Assembly (NCBI GenBank): GCA_944358495.1
Contig: CALVRF010000001.1
Location: forward strand, 1 to 39,112
From: an uncultured Bacilli bacterium
GTDB lineage: Bacteria; Bacillota_I; Bacilli_A; RF39; UBA660
Direction: 5' to 3'
Length of the DNA: 39,112 nucleotides
The notes under the pieces are model-generated. The model had not been told where the DNA came from. It ran no database searches and saw nothing but the letters and a program-made list of their open reading frames with translations. This document shows, piece by piece, positions 16,159 to 38,878 of this stretch. Within the stretch, counting starts at the first letter, position 1, and every line of letters starts with the position of its first letter. Both the position numbers and the translations under genes were made by a program.

Positions 16159-16159
16159 C

Positions 16160-18661: not shown

Positions 18662-18724
18662 TGATAAAAGGGCTTTTTAAGTCCTTTTGTGTTATAATAC
18701 AGGTGATGAAAATTGGTGATAATC

Positions 18725-19375
18725 ATGAAAAAAATTTTGCTTTTGGAAGATAATGAGTCAATAATTAAGGGGTTAAAGTTTTTATTAGAAAAAGAAGGTT
18801 ATGAAGTGGTAGTTTTTCGCGATGTGCTGGCGATGAAGAAAATAAATTATAATGACTTTGATATTGCTATTTTGGATGTAATGTTGCCAGACGGCAGTGG
18901 TTTTGAGGTGTGCCATAATATTAAAAATGAGGCTAAAATACCGGTAATATTTTTGACGGCTAGAGATGAAGAAGATGATATTGTTCAGGGTTTTGAATTA
19001 GGCGCTGATGATTATATAGCGAAACCTTTTAGAAATAGAGAGCTACTTTCTAGAGTAAACCGATTAATAAAGGGGAATACGAAAATTATCGAGTGTCAAA
19101 ATGTTCGTATTGATGTTGCAGGGGCTAGAGTATATGTCGATGGTCAAGAAGTTAATTTTACGGCCTTAGAGTATAGAATTTTATTATTTTTATTTATGAA
19201 TATGGATAAGTTAATAACACGCGAGGCTATATTGGAAAAAATATGGGATGTGGCTGGTAATTTTGTTAATGACAACACTTTAACGGTTTATATTAAAAGA
19301 ATCAGGGCTAAACTTAATAATGATAAGTTGATTACGACAGTTAAGGGATTAGGATACCGGGTGAATAGCAAATGA
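18725..19375 (+). CDS. OmpR-family response regulator
   Basis: Receiver domain (ILLLEDN, DIAILDVMLPDGSG, KPF) plus a winged-helix output domain (LTVYIKRIRAKL ... GLGYRV). Confidence 0.9.
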   Translation: MKKILLLEDNESIIKGLKFLLEKEGYEVVVFRDVLAMKKINYNDFDIAILDVMLPDGSGFEVCHNIKNEAKIPVIFLTARDEEDDIVQGFELGADDYIAKPFRNRELLSRVNRLIKGNTKIIECQNVRIDVAGARVYVDGQEVNFTALEYRILLFLFMNMDKLITREAILEKIWDVAGNFVNDNTLTVYIKRIRAKLNNDKLITTVKGLGYRVNSK

Positions 19376-20562
19376 TGAAAAGTTTTAAAAATTTAATTAT
19401 TGGTTTGGTTTTGGCTAGCGTAGTTTTTATTATTTTGGCTAGCCTAGTAATTTATCAGCAGTATAACAATTATGTTAAAGCGGTCGATGTGACTATGGCA
19501 GGAATTGTCAATGAGGTTAGAGAAAAGTATCCTAATGTTTCTGAGGAAAGGTTGATTGAATTATTAAATAGTAATTCTAATGATTTTGAGTCACTTGCAA
19601 GTTATGGTATTGATAGGGAAGCGGTTATTCAGCTGAAGAGCCAATTACAGGGAAATATATTAATGATGACTTTACTGATATTAGTAATGATTGCGGTGTT
19701 AGGTTTGATGTTTTGGTTTTTTATTAAAGCACGCCGGAAACAAATAAAAAATATTGAGGAGTATATTGAGGCTATTAGTAATTTAAATTATTCATTGGAT
19801 ATTGTGGATAATGATGAGGGTGAACTTTCTAAGTTAAAAAATAATTTGTATAAGCTCGTTTTGATGTTAAAGGAAACGTCGCTTAAGGCGGTTAATGAAA
19901 AAGCTATTTTCCAAGAGTCGGTAGCTAATATTTCGCATCAGTTAAAGACGCCTTTAACTTCAATCTTAATTTTACTGGATAATTTGAAAAATGAAGAAAT
20001 GGATGAAAAAACACGAAATGATTTTATTAAAGAAATTGTTTCACAAGTTACTTTGATGAATTTCTTGGTGGTATCGATGCTAAAGCTAGCTAAATTAGAT
20101 GCTGGAGCGATTGACATGAAAAAGGAAGCAATAAATTCTTTGGAGCTGGTTCAAGATGCTGTGAAAAACTTAGATGTATTAATGGATATTAAAAATATTC
20201 AGGTAGAATTTAAGGGTTCTGGAGATGTTTTTATGGGCGATTATCGATGGCAACTGGAAGCGCTTACGAATATTATAAAGAACTCTGTAGAATATTCAGC
20301 GCCCAATGGCAAGATTAAAATTGAGCTTAGTAGTACGAAATTTGGGGTTAAAATTTTAATTATTGATGAGGGTAAAGGTATTAGTAAAAAAGAATTAAAA
20401 CATATTTTTGATAGATTTTATAATGGTGAAAATGCCAGCGATAGTAGCATTGGTATTGGTCTTTCATTAGCTAAGTCAATTATTGAAAAAGATAATGGAT
20501 ATATTAGGGTAGAGTCAACGTTAGGTAAGGGCACAACATTTGAGATAAATTATATGAAATAA
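19372..20562 (+). CDS. sensor histidine kinase
   Basis: Two TM helices, H-box SHQLKTPLTSI, N-box NIIKNSVEYS, G1 DEGKGI, G2 GIGLSLAKS. Overlaps the regulator stop by 4 nt. Confidence 0.88.
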   Translation: MMKSFKNLIIGLVLASVVFIILASLVIYQQYNNYVKAVDVTMAGIVNEVREKYPNVSEERLIELLNSNSNDFESLASYGIDREAVIQLKSQLQGNILMMTLLILVMIAVLGLMFWFFIKARRKQIKNIEEYIEAISNLNYSLDIVDNDEGELSKLKNNLYKLVLMLKETSLKAVNEKAIFQESVANISHQLKTPLTSILILLDNLKNEEMDEKTRNDFIKEIVSQVTLMNFLVVSMLKLAKLDAGAIDMKKEAINSLELVQDAVKNLDVLMDIKNIQVEFKGSGDVFMGDYRWQLEALTNIIKNSVEYSAPNGKIKIELSSTKFGVKILIIDEGKGISKKELKHIFDRFYNGENASDSSIGIGLSLAKSIIEKDNGYIRVESTLGKGTTFEINYMK

Positions 20563-21243: not shown

Positions 21244-22227
21244 TTATCTATGAAATTTTTTAAGTTGTTTACGGACTAATACGGAACCTTTTTCTTCAGT
21301 GGCTTCAAATCTTTGAAAGACATCTTCTATTATACCATTACCAAGTAAAACTTGATTGATAGCACTATCTATTTCTTTTCTTGTGCTATTTGAACCGTTC
21401 TTATATGTATGAAATAAAGCGGTTGCAAGTAAGGTGGATATTATATATGTTTCAAAATCGATAATACTCGGACTATTTTCTTGTGTATATTCTAGATATG
21501 TTTTTTTCATAATGCATTCTTTTAAGTCTAGTAATCTATATAATGTTCTTAAGGTTAGTAAATGCTTGGTATCATCTAAATCCATGGCTCCTACTTTTTC
21601 CATAAAAATGGATAAAGCCTCATCATGTAATTTATTATATACACTACCTTTATTTCTATTTAATAAAGCATGGTATAATTCGTGGATGTATGTCATTTTT
21701 TGATTATCTTGGCAAGGTCCTAATAAGATAATTTCGCTTAGGTATACTGGCAATTTTTCCAAAAAGGTTTGATCTAAGTCTTTAAAGCTGTAAAAACTTT
21801 GAAAAATGCAGCTACCACTGGGCTCATTATCGGTATTTAGATATACTGGAATATTGGTGGAATCAATCCATTCAACGTGATTTTTAATGAACCTTATGAT
21901 TTTATCATATTTTTTGGGTTTGGGGTTGGTTCCGAATTTAGCGATAACCATTGAAGTTAAATAATCATTATTAGTATAAGGAACGCGGATATTTATCCCA
22001 TTGGTGTGTTTTTCTACAACATATTTTCCAGCTTTTAAAATGTCATTAATGGAACAAAAATGAAATGATAAACGATTATCCCAGCTAGCATTTAGATGGT
22101 CAATAGCAGAATACCTTAATCTTTTATATTCTTGGGTGGCAAAGAAGTCAGAAGTATATGTCTTATGGCCATGAAATAACATTTTTTTGTGCAAAATATT
22201 TAGTTCATTCTCACTAAGTTTAATCAT
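21244..22227 (-). CDS. hypothetical protein with an HExxH motif (possible zinc metallopeptidase)
   Basis: Only one recognisable element: MTYIHELYHALL (HExxH). A bidirectional hairpin at 21210..21240 lies downstream. Confidence 0.4.
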   Translation of the reverse strand: MIKLSENELNILHKKMLFHGHKTYTSDFFATQEYKRLRYSAIDHLNASWDNRLSFHFCSINDILKAGKYVVEKHTNGINIRVPYTNNDYLTSMVIAKFGTNPKPKKYDKIIRFIKNHVEWIDSTNIPVYLNTDNEPSGSCIFQSFYSFKDLDQTFLEKLPVYLSEIILLGPCQDNQKMTYIHELYHALLNRNKGSVYNKLHDEALSIFMEKVGAMDLDDTKHLLTLRTLYRLLDLKECIMKKTYLEYTQENSPSIIDFETYIISTLLATALFHTYKNGSNSTRKEIDSAINQVLLGNGIIEDVFQRFEATEEKGSVLVRKQLKKFHR

Positions 22228-22386: not shown

Positions 22387-23766
22387 ATGAACAAGAGAAA
22401 TATAAAATTTATTCTGTTGATCGTTTTGATTACTTTATTTTTAATTGGTATGCTTATTTTTTATAGTTCTAAAACAGAAGAGCAAGGACAAAATGTAAAT
22501 AAAATTACAACAACCGTAATGAGTGTAGGGAACAATGCATTAACAGTTCAAGATAATAATCATGTTATTTATACATTTGCTATTGATGGTGGAGATATTG
22601 ACGTTGGCGATATTATAGAACTAGAATATGTTGGCGAGCTGAATAAAAATGTGGATTTACAAGATATTCAAGTTATTAATTATAGCTCAGTTAATGTAAC
22701 TGAAGATGAAGATGGTATTCCTGATGATTGGCAAGATAATGGAATATTTAGTGACTTCTATATTCAAGCTAATGAAAAATTAAAAGAAATGGCTTTGGAG
22801 GAAAAAATTTCCCAAATATTGTTGGTTAGATATCCGGATAGCAATGGTATGATTATTTTACAGGAAAATCAATTTGGTGGTTACGTGTTTTTTGAAAGAG
22901 ATTTTCAAAATAAATCATCAAAACAAGTAAAAAGTATGATGAATAGTTTACAAAATGTTGCTAAAATTCCGATATTAACGGCTGTCGATGAGGAAGGGGG
23001 AAAAGTGGTTAGAGTTAGTAGTAATCCTAAATTAATGAGTGAGCCATTTAAGTCATCTAAGGAATTATATTTATCTGGTGGTTTTGAAGCCATAAAAAAA
23101 GATACTGTTGAAAAGAGTGGTATATTATATAATTTAGGATTAAATGTTAATTTGGCGCCGGTTGTTGACGTGGCAACTGATTCTAGTGCTTATATGTACG
23201 GGAGAACTTTAGGTGAGGATACTGCGACTACTGCAACTTATGCTAAAACGGTAATTGGAGCTAGTAAAGGAACAAGTGTATCTTATACTTTGAAACATTT
23301 CCCAGGTTATGGCAATAACAAAGATACTCATGAAGGTGAGGTAACTGATGAACGTTCATATGATGAAATAGTTAAAAATGATTTGCCACCATTTGAAGCT
23401 GGTATTGATGCTGGAGCAGAAGCTGTTTTAGTTAGTCATAATATAGTTAATAGCATTGACTCTGAGAATCCAGCTTCATTATCTCCGAGTGTTCATAATC
23501 TACTTAGAAATGAATTAGGATTTACGGGGATTATTATTACTGATGATTTGGCGATGGGTGCGGTTTCTAATGTTGAAGCTGCAACGGTAAAAGCGGTATT
23601 GGCTGGTAATGATTTAATTATTACTACTGATTATGCTAAAAGTATAGATTCCATTAAGACGGCCATTCAAAATAAAACAATTGATGCAAGACTAGTTGAT
23701 AAACTAGCCTTTAGAGTAATTGCTTGGAAGTATTATAAAGGTTTAATGGTTGATAATCAAAAATAA
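22387..23766 (+). CDS. membrane-anchored glycoside hydrolase family 3 (NagZ-like beta-N-acetylhexosaminidase)
   Basis: KHFPGYG and GIIITDDLAMGA motifs of the GH3 N-terminal domain. N-terminal TM helix. ATG at 22387 is preceded by GGAAAGGATGAG. Confidence 0.85.
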   Translation: MNKRNIKFILLIVLITLFLIGMLIFYSSKTEEQGQNVNKITTTVMSVGNNALTVQDNNHVIYTFAIDGGDIDVGDIIELEYVGELNKNVDLQDIQVINYSSVNVTEDEDGIPDDWQDNGIFSDFYIQANEKLKEMALEEKISQILLVRYPDSNGMIILQENQFGGYVFFERDFQNKSSKQVKSMMNSLQNVAKIPILTAVDEEGGKVVRVSSNPKLMSEPFKSSKELYLSGGFEAIKKDTVEKSGILYNLGLNVNLAPVVDVATDSSAYMYGRTLGEDTATTATYAKTVIGASKGTSVSYTLKHFPGYGNNKDTHEGEVTDERSYDEIVKNDLPPFEAGIDAGAEAVLVSHNIVNSIDSENPASLSPSVHNLLRNELGFTGIIITDDLAMGAVSNVEAATVKAVLAGNDLIITTDYAKSIDSIKTAIQNKTIDARLVDKLAFRVIAWKYYKGLMVDNQK

Positions 23767-23860
23767 AGGGAAAAATCTAGGACACTTGATGTTTTTGAAT
23801 TTGTCTACTTTTTGTGTACATGTTCATATTGCAAAAGTCATTAGATTTTTTTTTGAAAAA

Positions 23861-24075
23861 AGTGATATAAATGTGATATTGTAAAATAAAAACCCTTATA
23901 AAATAAGGGCTAAACTACTAAATTGGTGGAGAATAAGGATTTTATTTATCGATATTAAATAATTTTAAAAATATAGTTTTCCTTTTAATTTCAACCTTTT
24001 TGGTTTATTTATATTTAAAAAGGTTTAAAGTAAATTTATAAAAATTAAGAAAAAAATGATATAAAAATGATATTG
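23861..24075. repeat. att-type repeat copy A (tRNA-Ala 3' fragment at 23924..23938 plus conserved arms)
   Basis: TGGTGGAGAATAAGG is identical to the 3' end of the tRNA-Ala at 38802. Left arm: two GTGATAT boxes plus a CCCTTA/TAAGGG hairpin. The right arm of about 135 nt ends in ATGATATAAAAATGATATT. Confidence 0.85.
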
Positions 24076-24090
24076 ATTTATATAACACAT

Positions 24091-24119
24091 TTGACAATAT
24101 TACTAAATGTTGATATTAT
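24091..24119 (+). promoter_or_regulatory. near-consensus sigma-A promoter of the precursor/rSAM operon
   Basis: TTGACA (24091-24096), 17-nt spacer, extended -10 TGaTATTAT (24111-24119). RBS AAAGGAGGA lies 6 nt before the ATG at 24141. Confidence 0.7.
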
Positions 24120-24140
24120 AGCCATAAAGGAGGAACTTTA

Positions 24141-24524
24141 ATGACAAAACAAGCTATTCAAGATATTTATAAGGAATATTTATCACAGTCATCTAATGCA
24201 TGTTTAGAAGAAATTAGTGCTCATGAAAATGGACACGACAATAGTGGTGGCCACCCTGACTATCATAATGATTCACATGATAATACACCAGGATTGTATA
24301 GAATAATACCACAAAATGTTAATAGTGACTACGAAAAAGGTAGTAGAACATTAGAACTATTAAAATTATATCAATCACAATCATCTATTGAGCTTTCAGA
24401 TCTAATGGGAGTTCACGAAAATGGACATGATAATAGTGGAGGCCATCCTGACTATCACAATGATTCACATGATAATACACCAGGAGTATGTCAGATGGTA
24501 TTAAAGAAACGTGCAAAACATTAA
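24141..24524 (+). CDS. candidate RiPP precursor with two tandem cassettes, each ending in the core HENGHDNSGGHPDYHNDSHDNTPG
   Basis: Strong promoter and RBS. A 24-aa module repeats exactly at aa 28-51 and 92-115, each preceded by Y-x-SQSS-x-x-L. The 3' end overlaps the radical SAM gene. Confidence 0.7.
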   Translation: MTKQAIQDIYKEYLSQSSNACLEEISAHENGHDNSGGHPDYHNDSHDNTPGLYRIIPQNVNSDYEKGSRTLELLKLYQSQSSIELSDLMGVHENGHDNSGGHPDYHNDSHDNTPGVCQMVLKKRAKH

Positions 24525-25620
24525 TACATTAATTAAACCGACGCATAGATGTAATATGCGTTGCAAATACTGTTTCCATGAAAAATATGGCTACTCTAAT
24601 GATTTATTAGATATAAATAAATTAGAAAAATATATTTCATTATTATGTTCAGAATATGATTTTATTAATATTATTTGGCATGGTGGTGAGCCATTGCTTG
24701 CCCCATTATCTTTTTATGAAGAAATTTATGATTTTTGTGACCATTTTAATAAAGAATTTCTATTTACTATTCAAACTAATGGTACATTAATTAATCAAGA
24801 AGTTGTAGATTTTTTCAGAAAAAGAAATACAAATTTTGGACTTTCATTTGATGGATTAAATAATGAATATACAAGGGGTAACACATCAAAAATTTTAGAT
24901 AGTATAGGATTATTACAAGAAAATGGTTTTAGGCCAGGAGCTGTTTTAGTTGTTAATAAAACTAACGTTTCTAATTTGATTGATGAATATAATTTTTTCA
25001 ATTCTATGGGTGTAGGATTAAAATTAAATCCAATGTTTATCGATGGAGAAGCTAAAATGCACGAAGGTGATTTAGGCTTAAATCCCGATGAGTACATAGA
25101 AAATTTTGTTGATTTTTTTAAATACTGGACTTTAGATAATAATGGTAAAATCAATGTAGCTACTTGTAATGAATTAGTTAATTTAATTTTAAACGAACAT
25201 TCAGGGGTATGTACTTTTAATTCATGTTTAGGAAAATGGTTATGTTTTGATTCCGATGCGAATATTTATCCGTGTGATCGATTATGTACTCCAGAGTATT
25301 CTTTAGGAAGTGTTGATTCATTATCTAGTATAAATCAAATATTTGAAAGTGATGTATTTTATGATTTATTAAAATCAAGTGTCGAAAGAAGAACAAAATG
25401 CATAGAAACATGTAAGTATTATAAAAACTGTTATGCAGGTTGTAATGCCAACGCAATCCTAAATAAAAATGATGGGTATGAAAATGGTGTTTCATGCTAT
25501 ATTCATAAAGGTATTTTAGAAAGAATAAAAAGTTATGTTTTAGAGAGTACCGAACAAACAGAACATTTAAATCCTCAATATGTAAAAACTCTAGAGCGTG
25601 CTAAAAATAGAAGAAGGTAA
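24511..25620 (+). CDS. radical SAM enzyme with a C-terminal SPASM-type Cys-rich domain (anSME-like peptide maturase)
   Basis: LIKPTHRCNMRCKYCFHE (CX3CX2C at residues 14-21), GGEPLL, and C-terminal Cys clusters CTFNSC...LCFDSDANIYPCDRLC...CIETCKYYKNCYAGC. The GTG start overlaps the precursor by 14 nt. Confidence 0.85.
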   Translation: MQNINTLIKPTHRCNMRCKYCFHEKYGYSNDLLDINKLEKYISLLCSEYDFINIIWHGGEPLLAPLSFYEEIYDFCDHFNKEFLFTIQTNGTLINQEVVDFFRKRNTNFGLSFDGLNNEYTRGNTSKILDSIGLLQENGFRPGAVLVVNKTNVSNLIDEYNFFNSMGVGLKLNPMFIDGEAKMHEGDLGLNPDEYIENFVDFFKYWTLDNNGKINVATCNELVNLILNEHSGVCTFNSCLGKWLCFDSDANIYPCDRLCTPEYSLGSVDSLSSINQIFESDVFYDLLKSSVERRTKCIETCKYYKNCYAGCNANAILNKNDGYENGVSCYIHKGILERIKSYVLESTEQTEHLNPQYVKTLERAKNRRR

Positions 25621-25622
25621 AT

Positions 25623-26198
25623 ATGAAAGAAAAAATAATTCCTGTATATCACGGGAGTATACATCAAGGTTTAAAAATAATTAAAAGAAATAAAAGTACT
25701 CATGGTAAGTCTTGGGTATATGCAACTTTATCTAAAGCAATTTCCACAATTTTTATAAGCAATAAAGGTAGCGATTTATATTATTATTTAAGTGGTGATG
25801 GAACAGAAAATAATCCAGTACTTTTGGTGGAAAGAAAAGAAGGTATGTTTAAAGATATTTTTAACGTTTCAGGTTCACTTTATACGTTAAGTGGCAAAAA
25901 CTTTATTTCAGGGGAAACTGGTTGGTCCGCAGAAGTGATTAGTGAATCCGATGAAAATGTAATCCATGAAGAACATATAGATAACGTTTTTGAAAAACTT
26001 AAAGAATTAAATGATATGGGAGAATTAAAACTTTATTTATACCCAAATAGACCACCTTTTCTTCCGAAAGATAATAGTGATTTAATTCCAAAAGTTATAA
26101 GATGGAGAAAAAGAGGAATAAATATCGAAACATTTTTTACATTATATCCGGAATTAAAAGAACAGTATTTAAAGCAATTAAATGAAAATGAGGAATAA
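25623..26198 (+). CDS. hypothetical protein, translationally coupled to the rSAM gene
   Basis: The ATG is 2 nt after the rSAM stop. N-terminal VYHGS...HGKSWVYAT. No family recognised. Confidence 0.6.
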   Translation: MKEKIIPVYHGSIHQGLKIIKRNKSTHGKSWVYATLSKAISTIFISNKGSDLYYYLSGDGTENNPVLLVERKEGMFKDIFNVSGSLYTLSGKNFISGETGWSAEVISESDENVIHEEHIDNVFEKLKELNDMGELKLYLYPNRPPFLPKDNSDLIPKVIRWRKRGINIETFFTLYPELKEQYLKQLNENEE

Positions 26199-26321
26199 AC
26201 TCATTTTTTTTAAAAATAATATTTATAATATAACTAATTATATTATACTTACGATATATTATTATATAAATGGTAATTAACAATAATGCCGTGTATTTTG
26301 TTATTATGGAGGAAGTAAAAA

Positions 26322-26471
26322 ATGAAGCTTAAATATAAAAATGATATATATCAAGTTAATATACAAGATTATCTTCTTATAAAAAAAGAAATAATTGAAT
26401 TATCAGAAAACTTATTATTTATTTGTGCATTATTAAGAAGACCTTGGAGATGGGATTATGATAGAGATTAA
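26322..26471 (+). CDS. possible small ORF (49 aa) ending RRPWRWDYDRD
   Basis: Not in the ORF track (too short). ATG at 26322 lies 8 nt after GGAGGAAG. Confidence 0.25.
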   Translation: MKLKYKNDIYQVNIQDYLLIKKEIIELSENLLFICALLRRPWRWDYDRD

Positions 26472-26610
26472 AAAATTAGAAGTATATTGTTAAAATATGC
26501 AAATCAGAATGATTTGAATGATCTAAAGCAATGGTTTTAAAGCATTAAATTTTTAACATAGAATAACTTCCACCATATTTTTTATATAAATTATCTTATA
26601 CTTTAAAAGT

Positions 26611-26829
26611 AAACAATGATATAATCAATGATATTGCAAAATAAAAAACCTTATAAAATAAGGGTTAAACTACTAAATTGGTGGAGAATAAGGGTTTTAT
26701 TTATTGATATTAAATAATTTTAAAAATATGTTTTTCCTTTTAATTTCAACCATTTTAGTTTATTTAAGTTTAAAAAAATTTACAGTGAATTTATAAAAAT
26801 TAAGGAAAAAATGATATAAAAATGATATT
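26611..26829. repeat. att-type repeat copy B (tRNA-Ala 3' fragment at 26679..26694)
   Basis: TGGTGGAGAATAAGGG is identical to the tRNA-Ala 3' end. The arms are colinear with copies A and C. Confidence 0.85.
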
Positions 26830-26860
26830 ACAAAACAGTAGTAAAAATATAAAAAAATCA

Positions 26861-27079
26861 AAAACAATGATATAACAATGATATTGAAAAATAAAAACCC
26901 TCATAAAATAAGGGCTAAACTATCAAATTGGTGGAGAATAAGAGTTTTCTTTATAAGATTTAATAAAAATTAAAAAGTTTGTTTTTCCTTTATTTTTAAG
27001 CATTTTCGTTTACTTTTGTTTAAAAAGATTTAATGTGAGTTTTTAAAAATTAAGGAAAAGATGATATAAAAATGATATA
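26861..27079. repeat. att-type repeat copy C (tRNA-Ala 3' fragment at 26929..26942); left junction of the IME
   Basis: TGGTGGAGAATAAG plus arms colinear with copies A and B. Core-to-core spacing from copy B is 250 bp. Confidence 0.85.
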
Positions 27080-27097
27080 TGATTAATACCTTTTTAA

Positions 27098-27433
27098 TTA
27101 TCTATTTTTATAAGCCTCTATAAATTCATTATCATCATAATTGTGAACATCTATTTCTATTGGTAATATATTGAAATATTTTTCTAGCTTCTCATAGACT
27201 AAAATTTTAACTTTTTCTTTATTTTCAGTTGATACTTGATAATTAGATAGATCAATAGCTAACATTTTATCAATAGTAGATACAGCAACAGCTCCTCTAA
27301 ATTTTATAAAGAAAGCAATATCAGAAGCTAAAACATAAGATAATTTGTCATTATTCTGATATAAAGCATATTCTTCTAACTTATCTTTATTATATATAGC
27401 CTTTTTATTATTGTTAAATGATAAAAATGTCAT
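27098..27433 (-). CDS. hypothetical protein (about 111 aa)
   Basis: ATG at 27433 sits 1 nt after the upstream stop (TAA-A-ATG) with GAGG upstream. The ORF-track start at 27472 would overlap by 38 nt. Confidence 0.45.
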   Translation of the reverse strand: MTFLSFNNNKKAIYNKDKLEEYALYQNNDKLSYVLASDIAFFIKFRGAVAVSTIDKMLAIDLSNYQVSTENKEKVKILVYEKLEKYFNILPIEIDVHNYDDNEFIEAYKNR

Positions 27434-27434
27434 T

Positions 27435-27713
27435 TTATTTTGCCTCAGTAATTGCGAATAGTACTCTTTCAAAAGAGTTAGAAGTGATTTCAGTAGTGTA
27501 ATAACTATTTTTATAAGGCGTTAACTTCCAATAAAAATTATTGTAGCTATAAATAATATCAATATAGAAGAAATGATTATTATATTTTACTCTAATAAGT
27601 TCGTTCTGATAAATACTTATATCATATATTTCTTTGTCTTTATATTTAAGAAATGCGGGTAATATATATTGAGTTAAAACTTCTTTTTTTTTTTGATTTA
27701 TTTTGCTTTGCAT
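27435..27713 (-). CDS. hypothetical protein (92 aa)
   Basis: Intact ORF, first gene of a two-gene coupled pair. No motif recognised. Confidence 0.45.
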   Translation of the reverse strand: MQSKINQKKKEVLTQYILPAFLKYKDKEIYDISIYQNELIRVKYNNHFFYIDIIYSYNNFYWKLTPYKNSYYTTEITSNSFERVLFAITEAK

Positions 27714-27889
27714 ATATTCCTACTTTCCATATTAAATTATTTTATGCTTGTTTTAAGCAAGTATTTTTTAGTATAAAAAGATAGAAAATTCAAATATTAA
27801 TACTATAAGTGTGATATTTATCATTAAAAAATAATGTGTATCGGAATATCGCCTAATATGCAATTATGAAATAACTTTGTAAAATTAAA

Positions 27890-28186
27890 TTGAAGAAGGT
27901 GATATTTATATTTAAGGACAATATAAACGCTGTATCTAAAGAAATTGTTAAAGTAGATTTACCAAATGGGTATTGCTTATTTAAACTTGGTAAATTGTTA
28001 AATGATAAAAATATAAGTATTAATCAATTTATGAGAGATACAGATACCGACTTCAAAACAATTAAAAAACACGCAAATGGTTTAGCACAGCAAATAGATA
28101 CATTACTAATTGATAAATGGTGTAAGTATTTAGATGTTGATGATAATGAAATTTATGAGTATATAAGAAATAAGGTTGATAATTAA
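27890..28186 (+). CDS. small HTH DNA-binding protein (Cro/C1-like), paralog 1
   Basis: GYCLFKLGKLLNDKNISINQFMRDTDT...KWCKYLDV...IYEYI aligns with the paralog at 28404. The start codon is uncertain (TTG 27890 or GTG 27899). Confidence 0.55.
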   Translation: MKKVIFIFKDNINAVSKEIVKVDLPNGYCLFKLGKLLNDKNISINQFMRDTDTDFKTIKKHANGLAQQIDTLLIDKWCKYLDVDDNEIYEYIRNKVDN

Positions 28187-28239
28187 AATCTTATTTTTTT
28201 ATTCCCCACCTTCCTAAAACGAAAAACATTAAATATTTA

Positions 28240-28284
28240 TATATACCATTTATTTAGGTATAATGACAGCTTTAATGGTATATA
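28240..28284. promoter_or_regulatory. 11-bp perfect inverted repeat bracketing a TATAAT box
   Basis: TATATACCATT (28240-28250) and AATGGTATATA (28274-28284) flank TATAAT (28259-28264). A second imperfect IR lies at 28347-28360 / 28372-28384 (GTACTTACGGAATA / TATTCGTAAGTAC). Confidence 0.5.
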
Positions 28285-28403
28285 ACAAAGATATAAAAGG
28301 TAATTTTCTAATTTCTATTTAATGTTTTTCATATTAAGTATACCCCGTACTTACGGAATAGTCAACAACGGTATTCGTAAGTACAATTATATTAGGTGGT
28401 ATA

Positions 28404-28646
28404 ATGCAGGAAAAGTATGTAAAAATAGAGGTTGAACATGGGTATTGGTTGTTTAAACTTGGTAGTTTATTAGCTGAACGTGGTATAAGTAAAAATAAAA
28501 TAATGCGTGATACTAATACAAAACACGATACTTTACAAGGGTATGTAAATGGAACTCTTAAAAGAGTAGATATAGATGTATTAGATAGATTTTGTAATTA
28601 TTTAAATTGTGATATGGTCAATATTATAGAATATATAAAAAAATAG
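28404..28646 (+). CDS. small HTH DNA-binding protein (Cro/C1-like), paralog 2
   Basis: GYWLFKLGSLLAERGISKNKIMRDTNT...RFCNYLNC...IIEYI. RBS AGGTGG upstream. Confidence 0.65.
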   Translation: MQEKYVKIEVEHGYWLFKLGSLLAERGISKNKIMRDTNTKHDTLQGYVNGTLKRVDIDVLDRFCNYLNCDMVNIIEYIKK

Positions 28647-28677
28647 CTTTTGGCATTATTGCCAAAGGCTATTTTTA
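28643..28677. terminator. bidirectional terminator between the convergent HTH and Nudix genes
   Basis: ATAGCTTTTGGCA / TGCCAAAGGCTAT 13-bp stem (one G:U pair), flanked by A- and T-runs. Confidence 0.7.
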
Positions 28678-28690
28678 TTAACAGACTCCT

Positions 28691-29095
28691 TTATTTCATA
28701 TCTATTTTGATTTCTTCAATTATATGACCAATGTTTCCTTCGCCAGCATATTTGTTCATGTCGAAGAAATTATCATTAATTGGTACCCATTCGAGTTTAT
28801 TTACTTCTTCTACGAGTGTAACATTTTTATTTAATATGCCATAATACGCTTCTAATTCTTTTCCCCACTTAACATATGACAAATTCATAAAGTGGATTAG
28901 TTCAACATCATCTTTTTTTATGTTAGTTTCTTCATAAAGTTCGCGGTAGGCCTCATTTAAGCCATCATTTTCTTTTTCAATTTTCCCACCAACAAGATTA
29001 TACATTCCCATATAAGGCTCTTTAGTTCGTTTACACATTAATGTTTGTGTCATATCTTTGTTAAAAATTACTATTACATTCATTTTTTTCATCAT
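28691..29095 (-). CDS. Nudix hydrolase
   Basis: Nudix box variant GGKIEKENDGLNEAYRELYEETNI (REx2EE present). Confidence 0.8.
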   Translation of the reverse strand: MMKKMNVIVIFNKDMTQTLMCKRTKEPYMGMYNLVGGKIEKENDGLNEAYRELYEETNIKKDDVELIHFMNLSYVKWGKELEAYYGILNKNVTLVEEVNKLEWVPINDNFFDMNKYAGEGNIGHIIEEIKIDMK

Positions 29096-29155
29096 ATCAC
29101 CTCAAGATAATTTTACCATAAATTCAAACTAAAGTATACATTTGGAACAAGAAGT

Positions 29156-31009
29156 TTAGTGTTTCACAAAATCTTCTATTTTTTGTTTAAAATATGATTG
29201 CAAATTTTTGTCCTCACAGTAAATAAAACATCCTTTAATACCTCTGGTTAATAGTACTCTATAAGCATTTTTAATTAGTTGAGTGGCAATTACGTTTGCT
29301 TTTTCCGGTTCTTTTTTCAACAATTTTTTTAGTCCCCTTAAAGATGGATCTGTTGAAGCATGATTGAGAAAGTCGGCCACAACAACTCCATTTTCATATT
29401 TCAAGTCGTTACCAATAATTACTCCAACATAATCAAATTCCAAGCCTTGTACCGAATGTATACAACCAGCTTCATTGACGGAGTCATCAATTGCAAATGT
29501 CTGTGCTTGCCCCAAATTCCAGCTCATTGCATAATCATCAATAACAATATCATGGTAATCAGGGTTGTTAGCCTCTTTTTTATTCCAATTCCAACAATAG
29601 CCTGCAAGAATTCTAGCATTTTCTGTGGTGTTAAGTTCTTTAATTGTATTCATTAATTTAGTAGGGCTTTCTATTACGTTTATATTATAATCAACCATTT
29701 CCCCACTATATTCATTATTGATTTGCAAGAGGTAATCCACAAAATTTAAATAATCATTAGAACCACTACATCTAAATTGTGATTTTAAAGTCATATTCAA
29801 AATATTTGCATTATACATTTCCGCAAAATATTTTATATTTTCTTTTGTGCCAATATCATTAAAATGTACGCGTTGTTGTTCATCAATGAAAAATATAGAT
29901 AATTTAGCGGACCTAATTATTTCTTTTATTTGATTTTCCCCATAATTATTAAAAAGTCCGGATTTTTCAGTTAAGCAATGAGCTTCATCAACAATTAACA
30001 CATCAAAAATATTTTCTTGCACATCAGTATATGACCCTGATGATTTAAATAAATTATCAATACTACTTTTTTTCATACTTTGTTTTAGTTGATATGAATA
30101 AACCACTCTTGGAGCTGTATTTCTAGATACATATTGACACAGCTTTCCTTCGTTAATAAAATATCCCAATAAATTAATTGCAACTACTGATTTTCCTGTC
30201 CCTGGTTTTCCACTAACAATAACCACAGTTTTTTCATACTTTTTTGCAACAGATATAATTCTGTCAAAAACTTCCACTTGATCATCGATTAATTTAAAAT
30301 ATTGATTATCAATGAGTAATGCTTTTATATTGTTTTGTAATTTGGCGGAAGGATTAATCTTGGAATTGTTAATTTCTTGTATTATTAATCCATTATCCCC
30401 AAATTTAATATTGTCTTCCAAAAATTTTTTTAGTAATAATTTATCATTTTTTCCGAATAAACTAACACCTTTAACAAAATCATCAAATTTTTCGTTCAAC
30501 AAATCATCATTAGGTGTTAATTCATAATTGTGTAACAAGACAACAGATTTTAAAATCACTTGATTCTGTTGAATATAGTCGTCAAAATCCTTTAATAACT
30601 CCTGATAAGACCAAACTTGATAAGCGGGATGAACTACTTTTTGGAGTCCGCCATTAATGAAAGTCTCCACCAAATAATTACTATCATCCAGCAAATGAAT
30701 TTCACTCCATTGTTTCAATTCAAAAAGAATAACGACTTTTTGTTTTTGGTCGTTATATCCACTTATAATTAAATCTACTCTTTTTGATGTCATTGGTAGA
30801 TTATATTCTAGAGTAATAGTACTATTCATAGGAATATTACAATCTTTTATTACGTTGGCAATATATCCTAATGATGAATCCCACGAATTAATTTCAGATT
30901 TTCCGACTTTTCTATATAGTTTTTTGCTCATCAAGTCATTTAAAATGGAGGATATTCCATCATCTATATCTTTTAAAAATTTTGAAACACTATTACTATA
31001 TACTATCAT
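29156..31009 (-). CDS. DUF2075-family ATPase: N-terminal PD-(D/E)xK-like module plus SF1 helicase-like P-loop domain
   Basis: N-terminus SW..SL...KRVDLIISG...VVILFELKQW (D...ExK). Walker A SGKPGTGKS, Walker B LIVDEAH, and C-terminal HSVQGLEFDYVGVIIG, typical of UvrD-like C-domains. Confidence 0.8.
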   Translation of the reverse strand: MIVYSNSVSKFLKDIDDGISSILNDLMSKKLYRKVGKSEINSWDSSLGYIANVIKDCNIPMNSTITLEYNLPMTSKRVDLIISGYNDQKQKVVILFELKQWSEIHLLDDSNYLVETFINGGLQKVVHPAYQVWSYQELLKDFDDYIQQNQVILKSVVLLHNYELTPNDDLLNEKFDDFVKGVSLFGKNDKLLLKKFLEDNIKFGDNGLIIQEINNSKINPSAKLQNNIKALLIDNQYFKLIDDQVEVFDRIISVAKKYEKTVVIVSGKPGTGKSVVAINLLGYFINEGKLCQYVSRNTAPRVVYSYQLKQSMKKSSIDNLFKSSGSYTDVQENIFDVLIVDEAHCLTEKSGLFNNYGENQIKEIIRSAKLSIFFIDEQQRVHFNDIGTKENIKYFAEMYNANILNMTLKSQFRCSGSNDYLNFVDYLLQINNEYSGEMVDYNINVIESPTKLMNTIKELNTTENARILAGYCWNWNKKEANNPDYHDIVIDDYAMSWNLGQAQTFAIDDSVNEAGCIHSVQGLEFDYVGVIIGNDLKYENGVVVADFLNHASTDPSLRGLKKLLKKEPEKANVIATQLIKNAYRVLLTRGIKGCFIYCEDKNLQSYFKQKIEDFVKH

Positions 31010-31011
31010 AA

Positions 31012-32382
31012 TTATCTCCTTGTCAAAACTTTTTGCTTGTCGGTACAGCTATATGTTAAATACTCACCGGTTATATAAGAATTATCATAAAATCTCTTTT
31101 CAATCTCTTTGTCAAAGTCAGAATCCCATAAATCGTTTGAATAGCCAAGTATTTTCTGATATGTTCCAATACTTTGTAAATATTTTTTATACATTTCATA
31201 AGAATTAAATGTCATTAAAAAGCGATTTCTACATGCAGAAATTGGAAATAAACCAGCTTCATCAACCATCCTGTCCATATCATCCAAAGTATATCTGCCA
31301 TCCAAATCTTGGGGCATAAATGTCTCTTTGAGATAATCAATGCCTGGTACTGAAAACAAGATTTTACCATTATCGGTAAGTAATTCTCTAGCTTTATTTA
31401 ATGCCAAAACTGGATTGTTTAAATGATGTAAAACATAACTAAATATTATTATATCAAAAGAGTCATTAAATTCCAAATTCATAAAGTCTTTATTTATAAA
31501 GGCTGTTTTATTTTTCCCAGAAAAAATTCTGTTTTGAGCATTTAAAATCATTTCGTCACTTATGTCAATGCCTGTAATCTCACAACCATTAAATGTCTTA
31601 TCTATTTTTCCAATTAATTTTCCAGTTCCACAGCCAATGTCAGCAATTTTCATTCCATCATTAACGCTTGATAATACTTCATTTGTAATAGGGTTTTTTA
31701 TACCGTGATATATTACAAATCTTGATTTATCATCCCATTCATCAGCCACTTTGCCCCCGAACACTTCTTCAACACCAGAAGATAGTGTGCTTTTAGATAA
31801 TTGTTCTATAAAATTATTTAACATATTTATATTGTTTGACATTTGAAATTTTGAGGTTGAGCAAGATTCAAATGCGTCGATACATTCTTCAACCATAGAA
31901 ATAGTGTCTTGGAGATTATCATTAACCACAACATAATCAAAATTTCTTGCCACAATCAAATTATTGACGTCATCTCTAATTCTGCCCGTAGATCTGTTTT
32001 CTCTTCTCAAATTTAAAGTTTCTACTGATGGCGGAAGAAGTAGAATTAAACAAGTGTTCGGATTGGCTTTTTTCATTTCTAGGGCTCTATCAGGAGTTAG
32101 CTGAAAAATAATCGTTGAATCGGAGTTGATGTTATCTATATCTTTTTCAAAACTACCATAATAGTGTCCATCATAACACTTAACATTAAACATTTCGCCT
32201 TTTTTTACATAATCTTCAAATACTTCTTTTTCCATAAAGAAATAATCAAAACCATCAATCTCTCCTTCTCGTGGTTTTCTGGTGGTACAAGTAGTAAACT
32301 TTCTAAATTTAGGGTTTTTTAATAATAGTTCAGTTATTGTACCTTTTCCTGAACCACTTGGGCCACTAAAAACTAAATTCAT
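31012..32382 (-). CDS. fusion protein: guanylate-kinase-like domain plus class I SAM-dependent methyltransferase domain
   Basis: N-terminus GPSGSGKGT P-loop and TTRKPREGEIDGFDYFF (GMP-binding signature). C-terminus IADIGCGTGKL (motif I), GIDISDEM, FDIIIFSYVLHHL. Its stop is 2 nt before the DUF2075 ATG, and that gene's AAGGAG RBS lies inside its 3' end. Confidence 0.8.
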   Translation of the reverse strand: MNLVFSGPSGSGKGTITELLLKNPKFRKFTTCTTRKPREGEIDGFDYFFMEKEVFEDYVKKGEMFNVKCYDGHYYGSFEKDIDNINSDSTIIFQLTPDRALEMKKANPNTCLILLLPPSVETLNLRRENRSTGRIRDDVNNLIVARNFDYVVVNDNLQDTISMVEECIDAFESCSTSKFQMSNNINMLNNFIEQLSKSTLSSGVEEVFGGKVADEWDDKSRFVIYHGIKNPITNEVLSSVNDGMKIADIGCGTGKLIGKIDKTFNGCEITGIDISDEMILNAQNRIFSGKNKTAFINKDFMNLEFNDSFDIIIFSYVLHHLNNPVLALNKARELLTDNGKILFSVPGIDYLKETFMPQDLDGRYTLDDMDRMVDEAGLFPISACRNRFLMTFNSYEMYKKYLQSIGTYQKILGYSNDLWDSDFDKEIEKRFYDNSYITGEYLTYSCTDKQKVLTRR

Positions 32383-32409
32383 CTATCTCACCTCTTCGTT
32401 ATGCTCGCT

Positions 32410-32438
32410 ATAATAACGCAAAATAAATTTTTTGTCAA
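32410..32438 (-). promoter_or_regulatory. near-consensus sigma-A promoter of the Gmk-MTase/DUF2075 operon
   Basis: On the minus strand: TTGACA (32438-32433), 17-nt spacer, TATTAT (32415-32410). RBS GAGGTGA precedes the ATG at 32382. Confidence 0.7.
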
Positions 32439-32583
32439 TATTTTCCATTTTATTATGTACAGAAGACCAAATTGCCTTTTACTCTTTATAAAAAAAGTCT
32501 TTGAACGTAGTTTCAAAGGCTTTTTGATGACACTATGACAGCAATTTATGGGTGGGGTAGTCCCAATTTTTACTGTCATAGTG

Positions 32584-33033
32584 TCATTTTCTTTTGTTTA
32601 TATTATCTTGAATAATTTTTTTAGTGTCATTATATGCTTTATCAATTATGACATAAATAAATATTTCCAATATTACTGTAAATAAATATAAACTAATAAA
32701 TACATATAAGTTATTTAATGAAATATTAAAGTTAGGAAAATCTTGTATAAAAATAATTGCTAAATACACAAGAGTATATAGTACTAATAAAACCGTAGTA
32801 GTATCATTTAATGACCTATTAACAAGTTCTGATTTTCTCTTATCAATATTTAAACCGTTTTTACTCCATTTACCAACACAATATACGTTACCAATTAATG
32901 TAAATGGAATTAAACACCAATATAAGCTAACCCAAAAATCATTTTGATTAATCACAAGTGCTATTACATCAATTAACAAAAATATATTACCTAAAATTTG
33001 TACTATATTAAAATATTTAATTCTTTCTCGCAT
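32584..33033 (-). CDS. small polytopic membrane protein co-transcribed with the XRE repressor
   Basis: Four predicted TM helices. ATG at 33033 is preceded by GAGAGGA. Overlaps the repressor 3' end by 17 nt. Confidence 0.55.
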   Translation of the reverse strand: MRERIKYFNIVQILGNIFLLIDVIALVINQNDFWVSLYWCLIPFTLIGNVYCVGKWSKNGLNIDKRKSELVNRSLNDTTTVLLVLYTLVYLAIIFIQDFPNFNISLNNLYVFISLYLFTVILEIFIYVIIDKAYNDTKKIIQDNINKRK

Positions 33034-33520: not shown

Positions 33521-33542
33521 AAAAAAGCTCCTTTCTGCTACC

Positions 33543-34147: not shown

Positions 34148-34165
34148 TATGGGAGAAATGATAAT

Positions 34166-35110: not shown

Positions 35111-35131
35111 TACTTTATATATTACCTGATA

Positions 35132-35365: not shown

Positions 35366-35389
35366 CTAAATAACTGGGGGTAATAAATA

Positions 35390-37503: not shown

Positions 37504-37589
37504 TATATTTAAATTAAAGATTATTATAGTAGAAAGTAAGTAAAACTTTTTATATTAATAATCTTTTTTGTTTGGGAGGTGAGAGCAAT

Positions 37590-38687
37590 TTGTCGTTATA
37601 CCAAGACAAAAAGACCAAGAAATGGTGTTATAGACTATCTAAATATGTAAATGGGAAACAAGTTCAAAAGCATTCTAAATGGTATGATTTAAAAAAAGAG
37701 GCAAAAGAGGCAGAAAAAGAATATTTAAAATCTATTAATGAAAATAATTCTTCTGATGAAGAAATAACATTTAAAGATGTGTGGGAAAGTTATATTGATT
37801 TTAAGAAAGATAAATTAAAAATAACAAGTTATAATGCAATATTAAATAAAGGTATACATTATGAAAGTTTATATAATATAAAAATGATAAATTTTGATAT
37901 TAATGTTTTTAATAACTGGAAGAGGTATATAAATAAACAAGACTTTTCCACCACACATAAAAATAATTTATATAAATGTTTGAGGTCAATTTTAAGATAT
38001 AGTGAAAAGTATCTTGATATTAAAGTAAATACATTGCTTAATAAAATGACTAATTTTAATAACCCAAACGAATTAAAAAAAGAAATGAATTTTTTTACTT
38101 ATGATGAATTTAAAAGTTTTATAAGTGTTGAAGAAGATTTAACTTATAAAACTTTTTTTGAGGTCTTATATTATTGTGGTTTAAGACAAGGCGAAATACA
38201 AGCCTTAACTTGGAAAGATATTACATTTGTAAATGATAATGAAGTATTAGTAAAAATAAATAAAACTTTAACATCAAAAATTAAGGGCAAAAAATATGTG
38301 ATTTTACCACCAAAGACCAAAAGCAGTTATAGAACATTACCAGTAAAAAATAAACAATTAATTAGTGATTTAAAGTTATTAAAAGAAAGATGTCAAAAAT
38401 TATATGGTTTTTCAGAAGAGTGGTTTGTATTTGGAAATGTGTATCCTTTAGCTGATACTACTATACAAACTAGAAAGAACAAAAATTGTAAATTAGCCGG
38501 TGTAAAAAGAATAAGAATACACGATTTTAGGCATAGCTGTGCTAGTTTATTAATAAATAAAGGAGCAAGTGTTGCTTTAGTTTCAAAATATTTAGGTCAT
38601 AGTGATATAGCTACAACATTAAATATATATTCACATATGTTTAAAAGTGAATTACAAGATATAGCCGAAGAATTAAAAGATTTATAA
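37590..38687 (+). CDS. int: tyrosine-type site-specific integrase
   Basis: GLRQGE (Arg I), HDFRHSCAS (HxxR), GHSDIATTLNIYSH (catalytic Tyr). TTG at 37590 lies 7 nt after GGGAGGTGA and gives the typical MSLYQDKKTKKW N-terminus. Confidence 0.88.
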   Translation: MSLYQDKKTKKWCYRLSKYVNGKQVQKHSKWYDLKKEAKEAEKEYLKSINENNSSDEEITFKDVWESYIDFKKDKLKITSYNAILNKGIHYESLYNIKMINFDINVFNNWKRYINKQDFSTTHKNNLYKCLRSILRYSEKYLDIKVNTLLNKMTNFNNPNELKKEMNFFTYDEFKSFISVEEDLTYKTFFEVLYYCGLRQGEIQALTWKDITFVNDNEVLVKINKTLTSKIKGKKYVILPPKTKSSYRTLPVKNKQLISDLKLLKERCQKLYGFSEEWFVFGNVYPLADTTIQTRKNKNCKLAGVKRIRIHDFRHSCASLLINKGASVALVSKYLGHSDIATTLNIYSHMFKSELQDIAEELKDL

Positions 38688-38734: not shown

Positions 38735-38817
38735 AACAATGATATAACAATGATATTGTAAAATAAAAACCCTTGAAAAAATAAGGGCTTAACTATCATT
38801 TTGGTGGAGAATAAGGG
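38735..38817. repeat. att-type repeat copy D (left arm plus core); right junction of the IME, continuous with the intact tRNA-Ala
   Basis: CAATGATATAACAATGATATTG, the CCCTTG/TAAGGG hairpin and TGGTGGAGAATAAGGG are colinear with the left halves of copies A-C. Confidence 0.85.
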
Positions 38818-38878
38818 ATTCGAACCCTTGACCCCTTGCGTGCAAAGCAAGTGCTCTAGCCAGCTGAGCTAATTCCCC
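38802..38878 (-). tRNA. tRNA-Ala: tRNA-Ala (anticodon TGC); integration target
   Basis: The reverse complement reads GGGGAATTAGCTCAGCTGG...CTTGCTTTGCACGCAAG...GGTTCGAATCCCTTATTCTCCACCA. It has the G3:U70 Ala identity pair, anticodon loop TTTGCAC and an encoded CCA. Confidence 0.93.

Follow-up and report, generated by a model that had tools for sequence, protein, structure and literature searches.

Minviopeptin is a peptide made ribosomally and modified post-translationally (RiPP) of Mucilaginibacter inviolabilis, whose mic genes encode a precursor (MicA), a three-residue cyclophane-forming enzyme (3-CyFE) of the radical S-adenosylmethionine (rSAM) type (MicB) and an ADP-ribosyltransferase (ART), MicD (PMC12912966, 2026). 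MicD ADP-ribosylates N-tau of a cross-linked His, and only once all of the cyclophanes have been made (PMC12912966). Here we describe a locus that may be organised along similar lines in an uncultured Bacilli bacterium (GTDB lineage RF39; UBA660). The locus lies within a contig stretch of 39,112 nucleotides (GCA_944358495.1, contig CALVRF010000001.1, positions 1 to 39,112; hereafter the window) and consists of a 127-amino-acid open reading frame (ORF) resembling a RiPP precursor, an rSAM/SPASM gene and a gene for a 191-amino-acid protein. Taken whole, we read it as a three-gene RiPP cassette with a cyclophane-forming rSAM enzyme and an ART-like third protein, a reading to which we assign a probability of roughly 45%. 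An earlier reading of this DNA from its letters alone (the original prediction) had taken such an architecture to have less precedent than it has, given the pairing of a triceptide rSAM enzyme with the ART MicD in minviopeptin (PMC12912966).

Triceptide synthases join an aromatic carbon to the C-beta of residue 3 in omega-x-x motifs, and thousands of putative triceptide pathways have already been catalogued (PMC11499958). Cyclophanes that link His C2 to a C-beta have been shown on HAA, HNR and HTK motifs (PMC11499958) and on a HAS motif (PMC12912966). The triceptide enzymes ChlB, HaaB, YhhB, HtkB, XncB and OscB resemble the enzyme described here in that they are rSAM/SPASM proteins without a RiPP recognition element (RRE) that are paired with an aromatic-x-x core. 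The present locus differs from them in that none of the His motifs which the papers cited name has an Asp or Asn acceptor, and in that its core is much more conserved than its leader. It also shares with the His-Xaa-Ser system (HxsB/HxsC) the presence of repeated His-x-x motifs in a small peptide beside an rSAM/SPASM enzyme, but has one rSAM gene rather than a pair and the motif H-x-[DN] rather than H-x-S. Among described systems minviopeptin is the nearest, and the nearest enzymes are anSME, ChlB and DynA. DynA cross-links the C-beta of an Asn to Trp and that of a Tyr to a His nitrogen, and the substrate motif of anSME is Cys/Ser-x-Pro/Ala-x-Arg.

The likeness to minviopeptin consists in the joint presence of a precursor, a putative cyclophane-type rSAM enzyme and a small ART-like protein, together with His-containing omega-x-x motifs in the core; MicB and MicD were likened to the cassette proteins via their published description and residue numbers. 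The two systems differ in host, M. inviolabilis being a member of the Bacteroidota whereas the cassette occurs in AT-rich gut Bacillota. They also differ in core, as MicA (YSKIHASGGFTKDL) mixes Tyr, His and Phe motifs, whereas the cassette core carries four to five H-x-[DN] motifs and is near-invariant and, in the precursor of the window, duplicated. The cassette lacks MicC, which performs alpha-ketoglutarate-dependent oxidative cleavage, and the transporter MicT, and its ART-like gene is also widespread without an rSAM gene. The locus stands out by its H-x-[DN] motifs, by a core that is near-invariant and comes with its leader in tandem duplicate, and by an ART-like partner that is in part autonomous.

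A small peptide and an rSAM gene recur together across unrelated loci

The three genes follow one another tightly (Table 1). The precursor ORF overlaps the GTG-started rSAM ORF by 14 nt, and the third ORF starts 2 nt past the rSAM stop. The promoter stands immediately past a conserved island arm and is the top consensus match within 23700-27200. Every one of these features as called in the original prediction (promoter, ribosome-binding site, ORFs, overlap, rSAM motifs and 2-nt gap) was recovered at the position it had been given. No protease or exporter gene is encoded in the cassette itself, and searches of plasmid and phage collections gave no DNA match to 23800-26900.

That the locus is of the RiPP type, as had been proposed, is borne out by its relatives. 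Every rSAM gene of the clade (39-96% identity) for which upstream DNA was read is immediately preceded by a small ORF of the HDN type, and the two overlap mostly by the same 14 nt. Six distinct Bacilli-type loci, which were found via the rSAM or the precursor, share the order and spacing of precursor, rSAM and third gene: the window (with its sister contig L008), L001, L004, L018, L107 and L190. The neighbours of the cassette vary among them: it lies past a sigma-factor gene in L001, past rplQ in L107, before uvrB in L190, between clpP/whiA and a kinase gene in L004-L007, and in an uncultured Bacilli metagenome-assembled genome in L018. The triad is conserved as a unit across unrelated chromosomal contexts. 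In short-type relatives (Mediterraneibacter, Ruminococcus NK3A76 and others) the precursor and the rSAM gene are kept. Homologous rSAM genes thus adjoin similar peptides in unrelated contexts, the reverse of an outcome that the original prediction had named as refuting it; this supports a RiPP-type locus, and on sequence grounds the peptide and the rSAM enzyme are very probably a substrate-maturase pair.

Candidate proteases stand near some cassettes. A Peptidase_C39_2-like gene lies directly upstream in L190 (1115-1879), and ClpP genes adjoin the cassette in L004 (5284-5865) and lie a few genes away in L001 (11202-11750). None of these is conserved across loci.

A protein search with the 127-amino-acid ORF returned at least 56 homologous small ORFs, none with a Pfam or NCBIfam match. 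Most are 70-78 amino acids long and hold a single cassette of leader and core; two cassettes are found in the close relatives of the window. Short-type precursors of 48-60 amino acids (for example MTMSANELLEVYNAQVSTSDFSAHDNGHDNSGSDGPYHNDSHDNNPND) have the same core without the C-terminal follower and come from Mediterraneibacter, Ruminococcus sp. NK3A76 and further contigs, where the rSAM enzymes share 39-49% identity with that of the window. The duplication in the window is visible as a 118-nt direct repeat within the precursor ORF (24176-24293 and 24368-24485, 81% identity). Its two 24-residue cores are identical (HENGHDNSGGHPDYHNDSHDNTPG), and a second leader-like segment, LELLKLYQSQSS, stands before core 2. 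Another two-core precursor type (P0011, 98 amino acids, on 99 contigs) has its cores linked by a short ...HDNITGIINGIMFHDDGHDN... stretch; it lacks the second leader-like segment, whereas the window precursor is built leader-core-leader-core.

We aligned 46 family cassettes and their cores, from which all of the following conservation figures derive. Within the leader, conservation is confined to L-Y-x-x-Y-x-x-Q, while the core has the consensus H-x-N-x-H-D-[ND]-S-G ... H-x-[DN]-x-H-D-N-T-P. Column identity averages 0.84 across the core and drops to 0.48 across the leader and 0.43 across the follower. In these sequences the core is far better conserved than the leader, the opposite of the usual RiPP pattern, which suggests a conserved target or a cofactor-like role that would be unusual among RiPPs. 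Seven core positions are invariant (H5, D6, S8, H15, H19, D20 and N21), and these include three His positions. The third His is substituted in about one fifth of core sequences, the H-P-D motif is not universal, and a Tyr or Phe commonly precedes the fourth His.

The original prediction had proposed that every aromatic or imidazole residue of the core has Asn or Asp at position +2. For His this is so throughout the family, as all 217 of 217 His residues in the 46 cores have D or N at +2, giving four to five H-x-[DN] motifs per core, and to judge from this alignment the rule is not due to chance. For Tyr it fails, the +2 residue being N in 32 cases, C in 10, S in 3 and D in 1. Because the residue after Tyr varies, the constrained motif is H-x-[DN] and not aromatic-x-[DN]. 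The core had also been described as unfamiliar, and a full-text search of the literature likewise found no paper with the core strings and nothing relevant on His-rich rSAM precursors; a text match to the TALE repeat code was set aside as not relevant.

The rSAM enzyme and its proposed reaction

The 369-residue enzyme carries the CX3CX2C motif at C14/C18/C21, GGEPLL at residues 58-63 and SPASM cysteines at C234, C239, C255, C297-X3-C301-X5-C307-X3-C311 and C329. The CX3CX2C motif and eight SPASM cysteines are invariant or nearly so among 26 homologues. Many gene callers have chosen M16 as the start in rSAM homologues. The GTG start is nevertheless supported, because the N-terminus MxQINTLIKPT..CNMRC is kept in homologues and a start at M16 would lose the invariant C14.

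A protein search with the enzyme gave 381 matches. In profile searches it is recognised as a member of the radical SAM family, Pfam detecting the radical SAM core alone, and among the named NCBIfam models tested there is none whose cut-off it reaches. The highest-ranking of these were DynA (NF041298, 176.4 bits against a cut-off of 450), anSME (TIGR03942, 163.6 against 349) and TIGR04083 (146 against 300). The named cyclophane-synthase models and HxsB gave 75-91 bits, among them GrrM/OscB (84.7, cut-off 310), AmcB (78.9, cut-off 425), YhhB (76, cut-off 445) and HxsB (TIGR03978, 75.8, cut-off 370). The solved structure closest by sequence is anSMEcpe (E 8e-21). An AlphaFold2 (AF2) model of the enzyme (predicted local distance difference test score, pLDDT, 89) was matched by Foldseek to anSMEcpe (template modelling score, TM, 0.82-0.84) and then, over its full length, to ChlB with leader (TM 0.77), and the RRE-bearing CteB, TigE and SuiB ranked lower than these two RRE-less enzymes. 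Models, cysteines and structure matches all agree with the anSME-like, SPASM-type and RRE-less enzyme that had been predicted.

The likeness to anSMEcpe (PDB 4K36-4K39), the closest structure, extends to the RRE-less architecture with two auxiliary clusters in the SPASM domain. It does not extend to the genomic context: there is no sulfatase gene or Cys/Ser-x-Pro/Ala-x-Arg motif nearby, and the rSAM gene is strictly paired with a small peptide. A further comparison is with DarE/DarW and with DynA, the dynobactin maturase, which is the best NCBIfam model for the cassette enzyme and matches it at full length. The score is however far under the cut-off, the precursor is unrelated to WNSNVHSYRF and the host is a Gram-positive gut bacterium.

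In two further respects the locus is like the triceptide pathways: the maturase is a SPASM-type rSAM enzyme, and the core is made up of aromatic(1)-X2-X3 motifs. Distant relatives of the enzyme (29-34% identity) adjoin peptides that end in YYDYSDYSDSD, YADSDCCC or WGSDSDDD, which suggests that the wider rSAM clade acts on aromatic-x-acidic/polar C-terminal cores.

These comparisons lead us to propose the following pathway. Like ChlB, a triceptide synthase that also lacks an RRE, the rSAM enzyme would bind directly to the leader motif L-Y-x-x-Y-x-x-Q, and would remove a C-beta hydrogen from the position-3 Asn or Asp of each H-x-[DN] motif. This C-beta would then couple to the imidazole, most likely at His C2. 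The outcome would be four to five three-residue cyclophanes per core, each with a loss of 2 Da, and eight to ten in the two-core precursor. The 191-amino-acid protein, like MicD, would use NAD+ to attach ADP-ribose (+541 Da) to a nitrogen of the imidazole in a cross-linked His. Since the cassette has no protease or exporter, release and export would fall to host functions, or the product would stay inside the cell. We favour cyclophane formation between His and the C-beta of Asn/Asp because the i/i+2 constraint fits it better than other known SPASM reactions; by analogy with the described enzymes, we consider the odds for this particular reaction to be even. As the original prediction proposed, the product might also bind metal.

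The third protein, a probable small ADP-ribosyltransferase

The 191-amino-acid protein belongs to no Pfam, NCBIfam or PADLOC family, so that the profile search suggested for it came back empty. Its own family is sizeable, with 262 close matches and 683 representatives at E<=1e-3. The AF2 model of the protein has a pLDDT of 93.5, and in Foldseek searches against PDB, ARTs account for 8 of the 10 top matches, at E values of only 0.07-0.3 and TM scores of 0.33-0.47. The ART matches include the Rhs toxins TreTu/TreX (probability 0.8-0.9), PARP16 and Arr (0.66-0.69), and non-ART matches have probabilities below 0.1. In the BFVD viral library the protein matches unnamed proteins more strongly and named ARTs weakly. 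No significant match to a curated ART sequence model was found; the weak profile matches are to ART-PolyVal (E 0.003-0.03 in 2-3 members) and to DUF6886 (1.6e-5, in 9 of 70 members). A scan of viral contigs with the third-protein profile found no relative.

H10 (within V-Y-H-G-S on strand 1), Y33, F44 and E104 are invariant in the alignment, and H10, Y33 and E104 remain near-invariant down to 30% identity. Predicted strands at 7-12, 30-35 and 104-107 carry H10, Y33 and E104, the last at the start of its strand. In MicD, a protein of about 23 kDa, H7 and E101 are essential and F30-X10-Y41 forms a stacking pair (PMC12912966). H10, Y33-X10-F44 and E104 correspond to MicD H7, F30-X10-Y41 and E101 at a constant offset of +3, a comparison made with the published residue numbers alone, and the third protein is of similar size. 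On the basis of the model and these positions, the third protein is probably an ART-fold enzyme. That it acts on the peptide of the cassette is a more tentative proposal, made by analogy with MicD, and one that we regard as less likely than not.

The rifampin ADP-ribosyltransferase Arr offers a further comparison. Arr is a small ART with weak fold similarity to the third protein, whose stand-alone, mobile distribution is like that of a resistance determinant; there is no detectable sequence similarity between the two. Some family members (P0339, P0378 and P0395) are fusions in which the ART-like domain is joined with either a GNAT acetyltransferase or a P-loop (AAA_18/shikimate-kinase-like) kinase, an arrangement that recalls bifunctional drug-modifying enzymes. 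A PARG_cat_microb gene (L104:38-898) lies two genes upstream of the short-type precursor-rSAM pair of Ruminococcus sp. NK3A76. It is curious, given the ART hypothesis, that this pair lacks an ART-like gene yet has a microbial poly(ADP-ribose) glycohydrolase-type gene nearby.

Alternative explanations

Several points weigh against the locus as we have interpreted it. The rSAM enzyme is under the curated cut-off of every named cyclophane-synthase model, its sequence is closest to anSME and DynA and not to a His-modifying triceptide synthase, and the Asp and Asn side chains beside His could be metal ligands rather than cross-link acceptors. The assignment of the third protein to the ARTs rests on sub-significant fold matches and on the published MicD positions; sequence profiles of the family find no ART when run against PDB, where they return noise alone, and reach DUF6886 alone when run against Pfam. 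Finally, we counted linkage at 53 distinct third-gene sequences with enough upstream DNA (the status of L018 and L168 being set by hand). The third gene follows an rSAM gene at about 23 of these loci, and wherever the core pattern was picked up among them (n=16) the core is of the HDN type. It stands without rSAM and precursor at about 30, so that the accessory protein of the original prediction is not a dedicated one. Two third-gene loci, L157 and L144, share about 660 bp, which is the third gene alone. Its function may be unconnected to the peptide.

This last point can be taken further: the third gene could be an independently mobile enzyme gene, for example for a small-molecule-modifying or resistance ART, that has repeatedly come to lie beside the RiPP module. 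Its distribution has features of such a gene. In the tree, linked copies do not separate from unlinked ones but are interleaved with them, even where the sequences are near-identical, and the genes that stand ahead of unlinked copies include a pyrimidine nucleotidase/DUF2441/ASCH set, a tRNA-editing gene and an ATPase. In the near-identical pairs L157/L144, L160/L151 and L180/L188, homology starts about 14 bp upstream of the start codon, and the gene, as far as these sequences go, behaves like a single-gene mobile unit. L168 and L181 have both flanks in common and differ by a 1.6-kb precursor-rSAM segment. The fusions to GNAT acetyltransferases and P-loop kinases fit the same explanation, as does the absence of the third gene from the short-type clostridial cassettes (4 of 4 loci with readable downstream DNA). 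Set against this, all six distinct Bacilli-type cassettes found via the precursor or the rSAM carry the third gene, at a tight and conserved spacing (a 2-nt gap in the window, a 4-nt overlap in L005), and the triad moves together. There is also a precedent for an ART acting on a His cyclophane (PMC12912966). We regard a third gene unrelated to the peptide as somewhat unlikely.

The distribution of the third gene is that of an independently useful gene and resembles orphan bacteriocin-immunity or drug-modifying resistance genes. ADP-ribosylation lowered the weak antibacterial activity of minviopeptin, and its authors raise self-protection as a possible role (PMC12912966). Because the third gene so often occurs without precursor and rSAM, self-protection or resistance is the likelier role: the third gene is more likely to be protective or neutralising, with orphan copies in non-producers, than to be an obligatory tailoring gene.

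A different question is whether the peptide and the rSAM enzyme, accepted as a RiPP pair, undergo some other rSAM reaction, such as DynA/DarE-like His N-to-C-beta or ether links, anSME-like oxidation of the invariant Ser to formylglycine, epimerisation or C-beta hydroxylation. The H-x-[DN] motifs would then be mainly metal ligands or recognition elements. The two top family scores, to DynA and anSME rather than to a triceptide synthase, are in keeping with this, as are the position of anSMEcpe as closest structure and the invariance of S8 in all 46 of 46 cores. The anSME motif is however absent from the core, the strictest constraint on the core is the spacing of His and Asp/Asn at i and i+2, which is the geometry of three-residue cyclophanes, and ChlB is the next structural neighbour. 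We consider such another reaction unlikely, and retain His-to-Asn/Asp cyclophane formation as the preferred reaction.

We consider it very improbable that the cassette, rather than being a natural-product pathway, serves in anti-phage defence or some other conflict by means of an rSAM effector and an ART. Such a role is suggested by the tRNA island array in which it lies, beside a Schlafen-like helicase, a NUDIX protein and a guanylate-kinase/methyltransferase fusion, and by a PADLOC pVip match to rSAM residues 11-121. This match covers the generic rSAM core only, whereas the enzyme has a full SPASM domain and a co-conserved, leader-bearing peptide, and other copies of the cassette lie among housekeeping genes. 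PHROGs and PADLOC gave generic rSAM-core matches alone, with no convincing match for either the peptide or the third protein, and the viral contigs scanned yielded none. Still more improbable is a 127-amino-acid ORF that is spurious or encodes a His-rich metal-binding or storage protein and no rSAM substrate, for despite its His/Asp/Asn-rich composition and the lack of a family match, its homologues are mostly single-cassette ORFs of 48-78 amino acids that are always directly upstream of an rSAM gene and usually overlap it; they have a leader motif in common and vary far less in the core than on either side of it.

Possible roles of the peptide family

If the proposed chemistry holds, the product would contain four to five consecutive His-to-Asn/Asp cyclophanes per core of about 23 residues, a scaffold denser than, and chemically different from, the triceptides described in the papers cited. 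With its probable ART partner, the cassette would connect ADP-ribosylation to a RiPP for only the second time. Orphan copies of the third gene give direct access to the question, left open for minviopeptin, of whether the modification is biosynthetic or protective, and the 2.1-kb, self-contained cassette should be easy to express. The family lives in uncultured gut Bacillota of humans and animals, in which rSAM-modified peptides have been little explored.

A more speculative interpretation, which we consider improbable, is that the HDN peptide is not an arms-race antibiotic but a conserved functional molecule of gut Bacillota, the orphan ART-like genes reflecting community-wide ADP-ribosylation. 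It is prompted by a core that is near-invariant while the maturase diverges to 39% identity, and by the lack of an exporter or protease in the cassette. Such a molecule may be a poly-His-cyclophane metallophore, a redox cofactor or a signal, with a logic like that of pyrroloquinoline quinone (PQQ) or mycofactocin. If true, the orphan ART-like genes would neutralise or tag the molecule by ADP-ribosylation across the community, and this would be the first RiPP for which a dedicated gene for ART-based resistance or immunity has spread through non-producers.

Genomic setting

Direct repeats of 201 nt enclose the 2.7-kb unit that holds the cassette, in an array of repeat-bounded units at an intact tRNA-Ala gene (Table 1).

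Table 1. Features of the cassette and of the surrounding island in the 39,112-nt window.
Feature	Position	Strand	Basis or remark
Left att-like repeat: paired TGATATAA-N-TGATAT sites, terminator hairpin, tRNA-Ala 3' end (17-19 nt), island arm of about 130 nt	23874..24074	+	
Sigma-70-type promoter: TTGACA, 17-nt spacer, TATTAT, TG before -10	24091..24119	+	Consensus match 11/12
Ribosome-binding site (RBS) AAAGGAGG	24126..24133	+	7 nt upstream of ATG at 24141; read from sequence
Candidate precursor peptide, 127 amino acids, leader-core-leader-core-follower	24141..24524	+	ORF; 56 homologues; no Pfam/NCBIfam match
Core 1, HENGHDNSGGHPDYHNDSHDNTPG, residues 28-51, five H-x-[DN] motifs	24222..24293	+	Translation, repeat, core alignment
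Core 2, same protein sequence as core 1, residues 92-115	24414..24485	+	118-nt repeat, translation
Putative radical SAM/SPASM peptide maturase, 369 amino acids, GTG start, no RRE domain	24511..25620	+	Pfam Radical_SAM 1.8e-17
191-amino-acid protein, a probable small ADP-ribosyltransferase of the H-Y-E type, similar to MicD and Arr	25623..26198	+	AF2/Foldseek, invariant residues
49-amino-acid ORF with its own GGAGG RBS, in the repeat-bounded unit of the cassette	26322..26471	+	ORF
Second att-like repeat, 92% identical to the first; closes the 2.7-kb cassette unit	26629..26829	+	
Third att-like repeat (82% identity), where the 11.9-kb integrative mobilisable element has its distal end	26879..27079	+	
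Integrative mobilisable element, 11.9 kb	26948-38801		
NUDIX protein, defence-like cargo	28691-29095		
Schlafen-group-3 helicase, defence-like cargo	29156-31009		
Guanylate-kinase/methyltransferase fusion, defence-like cargo	31012-32382		
Helix-turn-helix (HTH) repressor	33017-33571		
AAA_25/DnaB-like protein	34166-35110		
Mob_Pre relaxase	35390-36814		
Tyrosine integrase with arm-binding domain	37572..38687	+	Pfam Phage_integrase 7.7e-27, Arm-DNA-bind_4
tRNA-Ala(UGC), integration target, intact; repeats copy its 3' end	38802..38878	-	

A partial copy of the repeat is present at 38723-38820. The last 17-19 nt of the tRNA-Ala gene occur in four copies with flanking arm sites, and the TGATATAA-N-TGATAT sites number 7 in the window, all confined to the repeats, where 0.06 would be expected. 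A tyrosine integrase gene, the sole integrase of the array, stands beside the tRNA gene, and direct repeats of the tRNA 3' end bound the units. By its sequence organisation the array looks like the product of tandem accretion at tRNA-Ala, and the cassette unit, which has no integrase and is similar to a cis-mobilisable element (CIME), could be mobilised in trans. Repeat copies 2 and 3 are separated by only about 250 bp, as an 'empty' unit. The GC content is 25.9% in the cassette unit as against 31.5% in the chromosome leftward of it. Sister contigs from gut metagenomes have the same arrangement, and in some an IS21 element is inserted past the 49-amino-acid ORF.

The 49-amino-acid ORF is called identically in sister contigs L008-L013 and is absent at all other cassette loci read; a 38-nt imperfect palindrome spans its start. 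Within the integrative mobilisable element, two paralogous small HTH_26 (Cro/C1-type) proteins (27890-28186 and 28404-28646) are encoded by a diverged direct repeat of 102 nt (71% identical).

Outside the island, the region 15337-20562 encodes an ABC ATPase, an 838-amino-acid FtsX/MacB-type permease, an OmpR-type response regulator and a histidine kinase, a layout like that of Bce-type modules, which sense and detoxify peptide antibiotics. A gene two places upstream of the cassette encodes a 327-amino-acid protein (21244-22227, minus strand) with a HELYH (HExxH) motif and no Pfam match, which could be a metallopeptidase. Both the FtsX/ABC and two-component genes and the HExxH protein were rejected as pathway members, being absent from other cassette loci. 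Further leftward, 12 tRNA genes are clustered on the plus strand at 10150-11884.

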